A DNA stretch of 64,000 nt from Eledone cirrhosa (lineage: Eukaryota), in assembly GCA_964016885.1 (NCBI GenBank), contig OZ024743.1:301568001-301632000 (forward strand), written 5' to 3'. Under the pieces are notes generated by a model. It was given only the letters and a program-made list of their open reading frames with translations, searched no databases and was not told the DNA's origin. The translations under genes and the position numbers were made by a program. Below, piece by piece: positions 16,848 to 60,870 of the stretch; the first letter of the stretch is position 1, and each line of letters starts with the position of its first letter.

Positions 16848-16942
16848 TTTTAAGCAAAGAATCGCTGTTTTCACCCTTAACGGGATCTTCTGAAACTCAG
16901 AAGATCCCGTTAAGGGTGAAAGCAGCGATTCTTTTCTTAAAC
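16848..16942. repeat. Near-perfect hairpin of a hammerhead-like element terminus
   Basis: ~45 bp arms around a 3-nt loop (TGA-AAC-TCA at 16891-16899). Same sequence as 59240-59302 and 3405-3452. Confidence 0.88.
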
Positions 16943-19900
16943 TTCAATCTCTTATTTTAATATATATATATATATATATATATATAAATATATATATATA
17001 TGTATATTTATATATATTTACATTCGTGTATGTGTGAGTGTACCTGTGTGTGTGCATGTGTGTGTGTGTGTGCATGTGTGTATGTATGTGCATGTGTGCG
17101 TGTGTGTGTGTACATAGAAACATATAAATATATATATATATATATTTACATAGGGAAATATTAAAATCTTAAGGAAAAATGGTTTTGTTATGGAAATAAA
17201 CACGGCAGTTTAATTGTATAGCCCTTTTGTAATAGATATAACTTTAGTTTGAAACATACATTCAACGGAATTACAATACAATTGTATAATAAAATTAATC
17301 TTAAAGAACATTTCTAAAACTGCCAATGCAACATTGGTGTAATTAATGTATGGATAGAATGTTAAATAGGTATTTGTGTGTGTATTTTAAATGTTTTTAT
17401 AATGCTATGTAAATTGACAGAATGAATCTCTTGGCTTTTTATTTCTATAAAGGATTATTATATGTTTTACATGTTAGTTTATCTTTTCTACGATGGATAG
17501 AAGAATTCATAGATATGTTCATAATATCGATTTTATTCAAACAAGTCTCCTTGACTGTATTAATTCTATGCAATATCCATCAGAATGAATAGTTCCGTAA
17601 AGATTTATACGAACATAATTCCTTCAAAATCTATTAACTCTAAGCTTAATGCCTAGAATTATTTCATATGCATAATTCATCCTATTATTTTGTGCAAAGT
17701 TGTAAATAACTAGTATAATTGGACTCTGGCGAGAGGTTCTCTAGCGCTTTCGTGGTTGAGCATTCACTTGTTCGAAGAATTCAACAACCAAAATCTGAAT
17801 TAAAAAATATGACTGTCCTTGATTATCTGAAGTTTACATTTACCATCATTTCCTAGTTATATAATGGCTGGACATTGAATTGCTTTTACAATCTATATCA
17901 CAATGTCTCATACAAATTCCGTTCCAAATTCTACTCTCAAAATTTCGATATGGGACACACTCTAATTTGTGATAGTACCCCTAAGTACTCAGCCATGATC
18001 ATATCTACAGGTTTATGTTTTTATTTCTTAACTTATTAATATCACACAAGGAAACATCTTATGCATCTTATATTTTCTTTCTTTAAAATATGTTTAATTC
18101 AAAAAGGTAACTTAATTGTCACTCTTCACATCTTTCATTGATTCAGATGTAATGAATATCTTCTAAGTTTAGAATTAAAACCATTAATGTTATCAACAGC
18201 TAGATAATAATTTAATCATTTATATAATATGATAGAACTTTATGTACCGTGAAAAGTTTTCCTATTTGTATATTTGCCATTGTATATTTCGTTCTGTTGA
18301 TTTCGTCAAGTGTAAGCATGTTTTCATAATAATGTAAATAGTATTACAACATGAGCACATTGCATTCTTCTATTACAACATGCACTTATTTGCATTATTG
18401 TAGTATCAATAACTTAAATGAATGTATTTGTAATTCACACACACAATTCATATAGAATATAGTGATGCATACTGATATTAATTTAGCCTCGCAAATTGTC
18501 AAACAGAAATGAACTCTAAATCAAACAACCCTATTAGTTTGGAGGGGATCCATGATCTAACATTTCTGTGAGTGTAACTATATTAGATATTTGCTATTTA
18601 ATATAAAAACTAATATTCCATTGTAAATAGGGCGCTAGTAGCAGCGTGTATAGTCAATTATACATTAACGAAACTAGATAAGTATAGCTATTTGCAAAGT
18701 TATTCGTAAATCAACTCAACACCTTTCTCTATATAAACAACAAATTATCATCGCTATGAGCGCGTATTCACGAAGCCTTATATACATGTTAGATTCGTTA
18801 AAGGAACAGCGCATTATTAGATGGTGCTCTCCGAAATAGATAGGTACATAGGTATTCAATATTAACATTAAAAACAGCATTCTCAATAACACACGCAGAG
18901 CCCAAGCAAATATGTCAACATATACACTCCCTCCACCAACAACAATAACATTTCAATGTTTCCAATTGTCATTCAGCAGAAGCATCGAGGTGTCTTGAGA
19001 TAATTTCATGTTCATCTCTCTATATTGCACTAAAAATAATCTCCTGTGAAAGAAAGAAATTACTAATACAGCGTACGTCTATTTACAAACAGGAGAGAAA
19101 CAAAAAGAAATGGCACTAAAATAAAACGGTTTTCAGCATCTCACCTTCACAGCACCAAGGGGAGAATACCTGATCACTCAATGTAGCTCTCACTCACAGA
19201 AGAGCTGATGTCACATCATCCACATTCAAAATCACCATACTTTTTAACATATATTCACATATATTATTGTGATACAAATCAAAAACAAAAAAAAATCAAA
19301 GAAACAGCGAAACATCAACAACAGCAAATATTATATCAAAACCTAAAACTGACAAACGAAAGGTAACACAAGCAATGCACACACACGGTCTCTGATAAAC
19401 ACACATACGTGGTTAGTATATTGTTTGCGTTTATTCCACTTTTTATTAATCAGTTTTGAGTATTATTCTAGACTTCGTATAACATGTCCTGTTACGCATT
19501 TATCCCAAACAATTTTCAAAGTGTGAGTATAAATAAAAATTATATACGTTAAATATTTTATATAAAGTTGAGTGAAAAAAAGTCGATACGATAACAAAAT
19601 GACAATTATATATAAAAGATATGTAGAATTCATTTTTTCTTTCATATATTATTTATAGAGATTAGTACATATGACAAAACAAATAGAACCATTATTCCGA
19701 AAGCTCATTATTATATAACATTTGAACATTTTAAAATGCATTTGTTATTTCTGATCACAAAATGGCGTCCTGTCTATCAGGTTGATGCACAATGTTATTC
19801 AAGGATTATGTATTTAATTTCGATTTTTTTTCTATTTTTGTTTCATATATTTTTCTCTTATTTCCTAACAGACACACAACTGGGTTGATAGCGTTCATAG

Positions 19901-20913
19901 AAAAAGAAAAGTCATAAACATGCTAATAAAAGTGAAACGCTTGAAGACTTTATCCCCCAAAACAACAGAAAATATAAACATTTCTTAAAATCTAATCAGA
20001 TGGCTAGATGACTCTAGGAATGTATTTCTCACATAACATTATTCTTATAGTGTAATTCAAGAAAGCACCTCAGGATTTGACATGAATATAAGATTATGTG
20101 ATTTAATGTAAGGTTTGAAAACTTTCCATTTTTTCCTAGCCTAATACGGCATACTACGCCGTGGTTCGAACAGTACAAATTAATTGGATAATTTAATAAA
20201 GAAAGTGAATTATTTAGCATCTCAGATCTTTGGAAATTACATGATAGCAATTAGAAAACCGGTACTTTTTACGCGCACAAGCATTCAAACTTCTGAAAGA
20301 TGATATTGTGCGTTTAGTTTTCAGTTAGCTCCAACAAATGGAGACTGAGTTACATGGAACATGTTTGAAACCCAGGTTCAGCGATAGGTTTTCACCTGGA
20401 TATGAAAGAGGTTATTGTTAACATATAAAAGGGGGAGCAAAAAAAGAAATTTCAAAAGTTATGCAAAATGTATATTGTTATAGCTGAATTCAGATACTAA
20501 GAGGCACGAAGGAAGCAAAACTATACCGTATTAACCCACAAATATAAATCAATTTCAGAAACGAACCAATAATGGATTCAATAGAGTAGGAATGACCTTG
20601 ATAATGATTACATGAATCGGGGGCGAATATAATAGAGATATTATATATTAATATATATATATATATATATATATATATATATATATATATATATTAAAAT
20701 CTGTTATTTTAATAAATATTTACTCTACGGTTCTTATATATTTGATATATATTTATACTTATCGAGCCCTCTTTGGATTTTAGTCTTAACTTTATTATTA
20801 TTATTATTATTATATATATATATACCTATGTATATATATATATATATATGATATGTTGATTTAAAACTGCACTATCAACAAGTGTTTTTTAGCCTTCATA
20901 TCATGTTCTCCTG

Positions 20914-20979
20914 TTTTATCTGATGAAAACACAAATATTATTGCTTGATGATGTTTGTTTTTGAAATGCGCATAATAAA
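20914..20979 (+). ncRNA. Type I hammerhead ribozyme motif
   Basis: TTTTAT-CTGATGA-stem II-GAAA-TGCGCA-TA-ATAAAA. Homologous to the 40.7-41.0 kb foldback. Confidence 0.7.
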
Positions 20980-21299
20980 ATATATGGAACTCCTTTAACC
21001 ATCTTTTGATCTTATATTATCCATACTCCAGTCCCACAAACAGTAGAGTGCTTCTTATCCGATATCTGCATTGCTTTACTGTACTACAATAAAACTCACC
21101 TCCTACATTATATATATATACATATATATATATATATATATATATATATGTGTGTGTGTGTGTGTATCTATATATATATATATATATATATATATATATA
21201 TGTGTGTGCATATATATATTATATATAAATATATATATATATATATATATATATATATATATATATATATATATATATATATATATATATATATTAATA

Positions 21300-59382: not shown

Positions 59383-59660
59383 GGTTCGTGGAAACGCTCC
59401 CTGGCAAAGAACGGGGAAAAAACGAAGATAATACGTCATTATTAGGAGCAGAGAAAACAATTACCCGCAAAGACAAAACCACGTTTATGGTATAACTGAA
59501 GTCGTAGACTAATATTCTATTAGGTGGTTCGTGGAGACGTTACCTGGCAATGAGCGAAAAAAACGAAGATAATACCTTATTATGTGGAGCGGGAAAATAT
59601 TTACACGCAAAGTCAAAACCACGTTCATGGTATAACTGAAGTCGTAGACTAAAATTCTAT
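59383..59660. repeat. Two diverged tandem units of ~143 bp
   Basis: GGTTCGTGGA...AAAACGAAGATAATAC...CAAAACCACGTT.ATGGTATAACTGAAGTCGTAGACTAA occurs twice. Confidence 0.8.
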
Positions 59661-60512
59661 ATGCAAATGCATATGTGAAATGTATGAGTTTTTTGGATTT
59701 ATTTATTTTTTTGGTGTACTTTATATTTGTGTTCTTTTACTTTTGTTCCATGCGATGGAAATTCTAATTATGTATCCGACTAACTACTATCTTTCATACT
59801 GTAATTTACCCTCTGTTCTACTGTACGGTACTATCGTTCAGTATGTAGATAGTGTAACTGTAACTTAATACCCCTTTCAAAACTTCTTACTTAAACATCT
59901 CTCTACGTAGTAGATAGTATAGGTGAATATATTATTTACTCACTCAAATCTCTATTTTTCTTACTCACCTCAATCTAAATTCTCACTTGAACATTTTTTT
60001 AAATTTTAAATTATTAATTGGTTATTCTTAATTTCTAATTTTTAATATTTGATTTTCAAATTTTAATTTTTAGTTCTAATTTCCAATTCTCATTCATAAC
60101 TTCTACTGTGAAACCATGATACCTAGAATTAAGTATATTTTCTCTTAGAGGTTAATGGTCGATTATACTGTCCATGCTTAATGAGGGGTAGTAATGAGAC
60201 ATATTGATACTTACACGCTCCCATCCCCACTGGCTTTCGGCTGACTGCGACAGGTGGCGTAGGTAGCAGTAAGCTATGAATAAAAAGCCTGAATGGGTCA
60301 TTGTTTGGGTGAGGGGGGAACTGACCAAGCTAATTTCGTTGAAATCTGCGGTAGCTAATGGCCACCTCCATCGGACCTGCGCCTGCGCGGACCGGTGAGG
60401 GTGAATTGGTACTCACAAGGGAACGGATGAAGAACCTGAGAGCACACACTTTATCCGTTCCCATGTCGATTCAATTTGGATTGCCTCGGAAACATAACTT
60501 ATTATGTAACAA

Positions 60513-60586
60513 GCTGTCTGACGATATCGCGGCACTGGCGCACGGAACAGTGTGACCACTGTCGCCATTGAAATAAATATCACAGC
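60513..60586 (+). ncRNA. Type I hammerhead ribozyme motif (AUC site) near the end of a GC-richer repeat (~60180-60638)
   Basis: GCTGT-CTGACGA-long stem II-GAAA-TAAATA-TC-ACAGC. Confidence 0.75.
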
Positions 60587-60822
60587 ATTATTATTTAAAG
60601 ACTTTAACATCTGAAACTGCTTCTCTTTACCTTATTCTATATATATATATATATATATATATATATATATATATATTTATATGAAAAGTGTAATTTTCTA
60701 CACAAAACGAAGGTTATAGAGAAAATTGAGGTTGGTAATGGCACATGGAATATATAAGAGACAGAATACTTTTTTGTGAAAAAACATAATTTTATAAGGT
60801 AAGGAAATAATAAAGGGTATAA

Positions 60823-60870
60823 AAAATGACCGGTTTCGATGGGTCTGCAAAAGCCATCTTTTCAAATGTT
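60823..60870 (-). ncRNA. Hammerhead motif with U3-A8 core (second, unrelated family)
   Basis: Reverse complement AACAT-TTGAAAA-GATGG...CCATC-GAAA-CCGG-TC-ATTTT; stem I partly degenerate. Confidence 0.6.

Follow-up and report, generated by a model that had tools for sequence, protein, structure and literature searches.

The window analysed here, a stretch of 64,000 nucleotides from the genome of Eledone cirrhosa (contig OZ024743.1, positions 301,568,001 to 301,632,000; coordinates below count from its first letter), carries type I hammerhead ribozyme motifs that most probably sit on two kinds of mobile element with the same insertion footprint. One kind comprises 5'-truncated ends of Penelope-like elements (PLEs), mostly of the Hydra clade, and the other protein-free retrozymes likely copied in trans by Penelope-type enzymes. 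We count 15 hammerhead families. Six are 3' ends of PLEs that bear an open reading frame (ORF), five of them of the Hydra clade and one of Neptune/Nematis type, a seventh is probably such an end, seven are ORF-less, and the family at 60823 was traced to neither class. An earlier note on this DNA had described a non-autonomous, retrozyme-like layer. This description holds for the seven ORF-less families, which are head-to-tail units with a PLE-type footprint, but six or seven of the families are PLE ends, so the note overstated the non-autonomous share. The opposite extreme, that every family is a fragment of an autonomous Penelope element, is true for six, probably seven, of the 15 but, as far as searched, not for the seven ORF-less ones.

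The hammerheads are type I folds for which self-cleavage is predicted. Using type I descriptors built for this analysis and shuffles that preserve dinucleotides, we obtained 6 matches in the window with a strict descriptor (0 in 60 block shuffles), 13 with a relaxed canonical-core descriptor (mean 0.05 in 40 shuffles) and 25 with an extended descriptor that permits core variants and a long stem II (mean 0.23, maximum 1, in 30 block shuffles). With the extended descriptor the window exceeds local shuffles about 100-fold. Of the 21 positions listed previously, 18 satisfy the extended descriptor, while 34116, 34779 and 60823 are damaged or weak copies. The core at 34779 reads AAAA in place of GAAA; in 16 of 20 genome copies of the 34116/34779 family the core is intact. 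Eight hammerheads beyond that list were found at 21850, 39140, 40452, 46652(-), 47098, 50962, 52837(-) and 56938(-). Core, stems I-III and the NUH site are present as expected for type I, with four families deviating at core positions 3/8 or 4. Across nine hand-picked hammerheads of equal length, two-sided changes occur at 9 of 13 pairs, and the covariation score is 0.59 compared with 0.22 for shuffled and at most 0.14 for slid alignments. Short palindromes form stem III in most motifs, as had been noted, but those at 32358 and 59252 have a long, monomer-type stem III. The families are also not all unrelated: 20914/40737, 24477/47648 and 30319/53431 each represent one family, and a 123-nt stretch is 71% alike in the 33061 and 37317 units. 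The Rfam search suggested as a check nearly misses the hammerheads. Among the 150 of 208 matches listed, it reports only HH9 at 33050-33121 and 33519-33590 with 38.6-38.9 bits, both short of the gathering score of 52, and is otherwise swamped by microsatellite microRNA matches. Repeat finding was likewise dominated by microsatellites.

Copies of both kinds end at two fixed places 3' of the hammerhead, about 30-165 nt apart depending on the family. Both kinds also form partial tandems with inverted 5'-truncated arms, which is the layout described for PLEs. The observation that element ends abut (TA)n is borne out by 216 of 274 distinct 3' ends in 14 families, compared with 442 of 21383 random positions (2.1%); this count omits an overlapping sister family (14/22), a unit with internal TA (3/19) and a family whose reference holds a TA run (0/42). 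Template sequence that passes on into the following unit or the ORF has no (TA)n run at this place, therefore (TA)n represents the target and not an encoded tail. What separates the two ends corresponds to the 'tail' that is bounded by two reverse transcriptase (RT) start sites in the Poseidon PLE of Anolis (PMC11167929). A bulged hairpin of the form RYTC-X...X'-(2-nt bulge)-GARY sits 4-12 nt beyond the ends of Hydra elements and of five retrozymes and is included in the feature lists below.

The PLE-derived features are as follows. Candidate numbers come from genome searches, in each of which 40 candidates were scored.

24339..25760 (-): 3' end of PLE-A, Neptune/Nematis-type, with a Pfam GIY-YIG match at 25383-25760 and a U3:A8 core at 24510.
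47399-47748: the same PLE-A end again, as a fold-back.
3994..5075 (+): 3' remnant of PLE-B, whose ORF of about 1200 amino acids lies elsewhere; 23807 candidates.
47098 (+) and 52837 (-): hammerhead copies from the 3' untranslated region (UTR) of PLE-B.
21298..22095, end approximate (+): 3' remnant of PLE-C, a PLE-B relative, with a hammerhead core at 21850.
39361..40335: fold-back 3' end of a young Hydra-clade PLE, C4 cores at 39441(-) and 40089(+), hairpin at 40178-40211.
35655..36423: fold-back 3' end of a Hydra-clade PLE, cores at 35803(-) and 36162(+), 88-nt stem II domain.
30017..30423: fold-back 3' end of a Hydra-clade PLE, cores at 30218(-) and 30324(+), both mutated, hairpin at 30069-30108(-).
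53362-53539 (+): further member of the 30319 family.
20849..21108 (+): 3' end of a Hydra-clade PLE, core at 20920, hairpin at 21025-21049.
40690-41117: fold-back of the 20914 family, cores at 40796(-) and 40931(+).
59236..59660 (-): older Hydra-clade PLE, 3' end with A4 core CAGAAGA at 59297 and 5-bp stem III.
16844-16959: fold-back of the same 16848/59252 family, with fragments near 3406 and 20695.
29682..30003: probable Hydra-clade PLE end, folded back, cores at 29875(-) and 29896(+), hairpin at 29749-29768(-).

PLE-A (11429 candidates) has 798-codon frames that encode an RT and GIY-YIG protein of at least 775 amino acids. RT, CX2-5CxxC linker and C-terminal GIY-YIG are all present, which makes it Neptune/Nematis-type, a group not split further here. 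Its hammerhead (24477/47648) lies about 1.1-1.35 kb downstream of the stop codon. The PLE-B protein, seen in one copy (L172:2346-5996(-)) with about 1200 amino acids and a long asparagine-rich insert ahead of the RT, has no Pfam match.

The five families 40085, 30319, 36157, 20914 and 59252 are, judged by their motif set, Hydra-clade PLEs. Best characterized is the 40085 element, a 4199-bp unit with 1040 candidates, 99% identity and four 4199-bp spacings, of which copies L235, L357 and L234 carry open RT and GIY-YIG frames. With RWK-like, DKT, CxCX5C and CxxC/CxH motifs, a C-terminal GIY-YIG and no CCHH it agrees with the Hydra definition; in Pfam the protein has only a weak GIY-YIG match (E 0.025). 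The other four families were assigned via partial frames and tblastn. The 36157 family tail continues into a Hydra-type ORF start in one copy (L178). For the 30319/53431 family (3969-bp unit) the Hydra-type ORF is broken in the single copy fetched. In the 20914/40737 family, a Hydra-type endonuclease lies upstream in 6 of 10 fetched copies and an inverted RT frame in a seventh. The 16848/59252 family (6422 candidates) is preceded by a Hydra-type endonuclease at a distance of about 1.2 kb, and an ORF starts beyond its tail. Likeness to published Hydra proteins was judged by eye. The 29890 family has at least ~450 nt of non-coding sequence upstream and no same-strand tandem in 29 loci; a sister with 76% identity continues into a Hydra-type ORF start (L116), and the family is probably a Hydra-clade PLE end as well.

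Where measured, the 3' UTRs of the ORF-bearing PLEs are about 1.2-1.5 kb long. These long 3' UTRs together with 5' truncation explain why PLE-end copies look ORF-less, and no Hydra coding sequence turned up in ORF scans of the window. Caution is thus advised with solo hammerheads beside (TA)n, which are often the ends of coding elements with long 3' UTRs. The Hydra clade of Craig et al. 2021 (PMC8557442) shares with the elements described here the C-terminal GIY-YIG, the RW-R/K, DKT, CxCX5C, CxxC and CxH motifs, the lack of CCHH and the 3'-end hammerhead. It also shares (TA)n insertion, tail and tandem or inverted structure, all of which are present in our Hydra-family copies. Its published length is generally <3 kb compared with about 4.0-4.2 kb here, due to the long 3' UTRs, and family-wide C4 and A4 cores are a feature of the elements here.

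The seven ORF-less families have unit lengths, by head-to-tail spacing, of 468, 467, 430-504, 663, 522, 1294 and 2024 bp, and are represented in the window by these features.

32987..33869 (+): 468-469-bp unit in 1.9 tandem copies, cores at 33068 and 33537.
31939..32986 (+): 467-bp unit with an inverted arm at 31939-32130, core at 32363, long stem III.
34112..35122 (+): 663-bp unit in partial tandem, cores at 34122 and 34785 (the second damaged), hairpin at 34479-34514.
37259..38085 (+): 430-504-bp unit in partial tandem, cores at 37321 and 37825.
46479-46879 (-): relative of the 37317 unit.
51197..52010: 522-bp unit, fold-back insertion, cores at 51447(-) and 51883(+), hairpin at 51288-51311(-).
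22353..23160 (-): 3' part of the 2024-bp unit, core at 22457; at least 3063 candidates.
59689..60637 (+): 3' part of the 1294-bp unit, core at 60518.

All seven show head-to-tail repeats with one type I hammerhead per unit. The 468-bp (33061) unit is present in at least 924 candidates with ~99% identity, in tandem and inverted copies; cleavage is predicted after 33098 and 33567, its longest ATG ORF has 20 amino acids and the Hydra-type hairpin is not present. For the 467-bp unit (at least 1385 candidates with 467-bp spacing) predicted cleavage falls after 32428, a bulged hairpin lies at 32599-32631 and a TA array interrupts the unit at 32657-32963. The 663-bp unit has at least 2705 candidates, with unit continuity in L196 and L201, and the 522-bp unit at least 2228 with spacings of 520-522 bp. 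The candidate counts of the five ORF-less families searched (924-3063) are lower bounds. The 37317 unit, also without a Hydra-type hairpin, gave 25 matches in 1 Mb with spacings of 431-504 and forms a 9-core array in L152. In six units the longest ATG ORFs range from 20 to 95 amino acids, and the seventh has no coding-like ORF. Using tblastn, with Hydra pieces run on the 20914 family and the ORF-less units, we obtained no match of these units to nine PLE protein pieces, nor did they give an informative DNA match to 12 stretches from ORF-bearing elements. Folded as circles, seven units (six window families and one 311-bp unit from elsewhere) surpass shuffles with z from -3.1 to -9.3, the lowest value being that of the 468-bp unit.

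Metazoan non-LTR (long terminal repeat) retrozymes (Cervera and de la Pena 2020, PMC7229834; Li, Clavereau and Pollet 2026, bioRxiv 10.64898/2026.07.22.740005) likewise lack ORFs, repeat head to tail with a single type I hammerhead per unit, are GC-poor and self-paired, and coexist with PLEs. Published unit sizes are 170-400 nt (PMC7229834) and 51-972 bp (Li 2026) as against 467-2024 bp here: the five units of 467-663 bp fit the range of Li et al., while those of 1294 and 2024 bp lie above it and could derive from PLEs by internal deletion. The longest ATG ORF of the 1294-bp unit has 72 amino acids. In contrast to published retrozymes, those described here are scattered through the genome as short arrays, which carry inverted arms and stop at two fixed 3' ends beside (TA)n; their circles are predicted, and among the elements sampled they share with Hydra PLEs the hairpin alone and not the sequence of the pseudo-LTR (pLTR).

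Ten of 12 Hydra ends have the hairpin, as do 5 of 16 retrozyme ends but none of the 5 PLE-A/B/C ends; the background is 41 of 6000 random positions. Among ORF-less units it stands at the first end of 5 of 8 (5 of the 7 window units). Its outer pair is G-C eight times and A-U seven times, its inner pair C-G in 10 cases, U-A in four and A-U in one; outer and inner pairs covary and the middle pairs are nearly fixed. Two hold-out families, which had played no part in defining the hairpin, carry it 6-10 nt beyond their short end. It lies outside the short copy and in full-length elements recurs after the long end, as expected for a binding or start signal. By eye it is visible twice in published Hydra-1_Ajap (sea cucumber) and also in the entry preceding Hydra-1_Obim, which by file order is Hydra-2_Amil (coral), while its reading in the octopus Hydra element is ambiguous. 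We found no description of it in the literature searched, including the accessible parts of PMC8557442 and PMC11167929.

Since five retrozymes and Hydra have this hairpin in common and PLE-A/B/C ends lack it, the helper of the five hairpin-bearing retrozymes is likely a Hydra element, as far as sequence can tell; the assignment covers those five units only and not the 33061 and 37317 units. The GIY-YIG Penelope elements of the window, which the earlier note took to mobilise the families, are thus probably the wrong helper. Tentatively, and with somewhat less than even confidence, we propose that the twin hairpin is the RT start signal of the Hydra clade, kept from corals to echinoderms, and that circular ribozyme RNAs without a protein of their own take over the enzyme by imitating the hairpin alone. 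Part of this proposal is that this genome may exceed all others counted so far in hammerheads, an active A4-core variant among them. If true, the hairpin names the helper of animal retrozymes and would offer a transferable module with which any RNA circle could be inserted into (TA)n by a rolling-circle route.

In the mechanism we envisage, a PLE protein would bind the RNA at the hairpin and nick a (TA)n tract, and reverse transcription would begin at either of two sites immediately 5' of the hairpin, giving the short end or the tailed end. The retrozyme template would be a circle made by hammerhead cleavage and ligation and copied for more than one turn, with cleavage via dimers where stem III is a short palindrome. 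A circular template has been proposed before (PMC4209133, PMC7229834). For the Poseidon PLE of Anolis, the tail was found in vitro to be set by two internal RT start sites (Frangieh et al. 2024, PMC11167929). That element also shares an AT-rich target, but its starts lie in an AC-rich stem-loop inside the ORF, whereas the inferred starts here lie in non-coding RNA 5' of the twin bulged hairpin.

The copies themselves bear on the template. Of 119 5' breakpoints, only 1 lies 6 nt or less from the cleavage site, where a uniform spread would place 2.9, and tandem blocks extend to 3.95 units. In all four testable families, each with few loci, units are closer within than between insertions (0.53 vs 1.71%, 0.87 vs 1.23%, 0.03 vs 0.36% and 0.70 vs 11.7% divergence). 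Scattered breakpoints, multi-unit blocks and this similarity argue against a cleaved linear monomer as the main template. Of the two templates left by these data we lean modestly towards a circle over an uncleaved multi-unit transcript.

Several observations weigh against parts of this account. The 1294- and 2024-bp units are known from a single tandem copy each (L132 and L356, the latter without a coding ORF), and an ORF-bearing parent of a 'retrozyme' may have been missed because only 40 candidates were scored per search. Crossing of the cleavage site is inflated because the retrieval queries lay at or adjoining the hammerhead, and an uncleaved tandem transcript would explain the breakpoint and divergence data equally well. 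Only one of nine retrozyme dimers was cleaved in the experiments of Li et al. (bioRxiv 10.64898/2026.07.22.740005). The hairpin counts are not independent because the pattern was defined from the same ends, two other two-ended hold-out families lack the hairpin, and neither end of the 36157 family nor any retrozyme second end has it, with several near-misses by eye. Its background within retrozyme units is 58 of 2422 positions.

How far could the data be explained otherwise? Chance motifs or assembly fold-back artefacts in AT-rich, low-complexity DNA might be suspected, given that many elements are near-perfect palindromes and that (TA)n runs occur ~30 times per 10 kb of genome. However, the excess over local shuffles, the covariation, the two arms that stop at different family-specific positions in many copies and the presence of the 33061 unit in contigs of sequencing runs from three studies already refute this and leave it a negligible chance. 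Very unlikely, too, is that all families are pLTR or 3' UTR debris of autonomous PLEs and that the tandems are later local minisatellite duplications without mobility. Six or seven families did prove to be PLE debris once traced far enough, our searches were shallow, and Li et al. (bioRxiv 10.64898/2026.07.22.740005) propose local pLTR amplification. Yet the units occur as hundreds to thousands of dispersed candidates with 93-99% identity on many contigs, and each insertion has its own 5' breakpoint, fixed 3' ends and an inverted arm. Moreover, upstream of a tandem unit lies the end of the previous unit and not coding sequence, and the direct and inverted arms of a single insertion are equally alike.

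If the ORF-less units are mobile, the Neptune/Nematis-type elements of the window (PLE-A, -B and -C) could have mobilised all of them: these are young and very abundant, share the (TA)n target and similar tail lengths, and their PLE-B/C ends bear a loose ATATCG..TTTC likeness, seen by eye, to the 33061 and 37317 units, which have no Hydra hairpin. We nevertheless consider this improbable, as the hairpin of Hydra ends is present in five of seven retrozymes and in none of the PLE-A/B/C ends, and the units have no DNA similarity to these elements in the stretches compared. A stronger competitor, if still rather unlikely, departs from our explanation at the template step only. The ORF-less units would be mobile PLE passengers with a dispensable hammerhead, copied from uncleaved multi-unit transcripts with no circle. 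The 5' ends do not pile up at the cleavage site, Anolis PLE hammerhead mutants inserted unimpaired in vitro (PMC11167929), and an abundant family has an A4 core expected to be harmful. Cores and stems are, however, maintained with compensatory changes across families, the circular folds are far better than those of shuffles, and circles have been demonstrated for coral, mussel and axolotl retrozymes (PMC7229834).

The core variants are family-wide in four families (U3:A8 twice, C4 and A4). U3:A8 is found in 43 of 44 copies of the 24477/47648 family and also at 60823, C4 is fixed in the 40085 family (7/7 copies), and in the 16848/59252 family 34 of 40 copies have CAGAAGA and none CUGA. The compensated cores G3:C8 and A3:U8 gave 0 matches in 1 Mb. 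U3:A8 and U4C variants have been described (PMC3088659); a U4A hammerhead was not found in the literature searched, including the accessible parts of that paper, although subscription papers and bioRxiv supplements may cover it. The A4 family at 59297(-) keeps stems I and III intact, and by its sequence its core may be a change that the ribozyme tolerates, or the ribozyme may be dead and the element successful all the same.

The hammerheads are not confined to the window. In a genome sample of 114 evenly spaced 10-kb stretches (1.14 Mb of 3.0 Gb) we found 159 matches, compared with 4 in shuffled sequence, in 57 of the 114 stretches. The mean is 1.39 hammerheads per 10 kb (bootstrap 0.97-1.88), which extrapolates to ~4x10^5 in the genome (3-5.6x10^5), a figure partly driven by a few long arrays. 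At 3.9 per 10 kb the window holds ~2.8 times the mean, and 25 matches are reached by 2% of resampled windows. The 'dense zoo' described earlier is thus dense, but the locus is not special and samples a genome-wide layer. All sampled DNA, a sample biased by our searches, yielded 494 matches in 53 clusters, a few of them likely false. Published counts are ~9,000 for Xenopus, >6,000 for Acropora and 126,247 for axolotl (PMC4209133, PMC7229834); descriptors differ, so comparison with our extrapolated total is rough.

Both kinds of element have been published, as Hydra and Neptune/Nematis-type PLE ends and as non-LTR retrozymes, and the members described here are new. The pLTR hammerheads of PLEs (Cervera and de la Pena 2014, PMC4209133) similarly include solo motifs from truncated PLEs, many families per genome, opposite-strand pairs 100-700 bp apart, palindromic stem III and U3:A8. 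PLEs have been proposed as retrozyme helpers both in PMC7229834 and in the 2026 preprint (bioRxiv 10.64898/2026.07.22.740005), whose subject is this link; so far the enzyme that spreads retrozymes in animals has been argued from co-occurrence and pLTR similarity. Four points go beyond routine here: young ORF-less units bear the PLE footprint, they have a hairpin in common with Hydra elements, hammerheads are dense, and one family has an A4 core. Because open-frame Hydra copies are present in the same genome, helper, RNA signal and circular-template model can be tested with one purified protein.

Some further hammerheads and retrozyme copies were observed. Three additional families lie at 39140, 40452 and 50962, two of them with C4 cores, and the following complete the list.

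60676..60880 (-): U3:A8 hammerhead with a weak stem I, core at 60865; one other copy was seen (L088).
56615..57320 (-): additional hammerhead family, core at 56938, 105-nt stem II domain, 9-bp stem I.
31531-31918 (+): damaged copy of the 56938 family.

In the arrays of the 311-bp ORF-less hammerhead unit (L027:4700-8300, L036:250-3400), 11-12 copies follow one another almost unchanged, and one array switches strand internally. This unit has tail sequence in common with the window's 39140 family. At 32964-32989 the 467-bp unit continues past its second end and joins the 468-bp unit via a common CTA; the rest of the 467-bp unit is absent downstream of 468-bp copies. This junction may be a chimeric complementary DNA produced by a template jump between two retrozyme RNAs, in which case one enzyme would copy both retrozymes. 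Contigs of four sequencing runs carry the 33061 unit or parts of it, which cannot show ends or expression, and contigs labelled as two other organisms (runs X5 and X6) contain parts of the 468-bp unit at low depth, which may represent a relative or carry-over.

A TA-flanked element at 35145-35622(+) and 38191-38655(-) has two CUGAUGA boxes, the second followed by GAAA 7 nt on with no space for stem II, and resembles the 'HHR_core' of Naiads. Finally, non-LTR retrotransposon remnants with RT or endonuclease domains occupy 618-2198, 5700-15726(-), 36500-37260 and 61613-63226, and include a 3.5-kb tandem duplication at 6612-12329.

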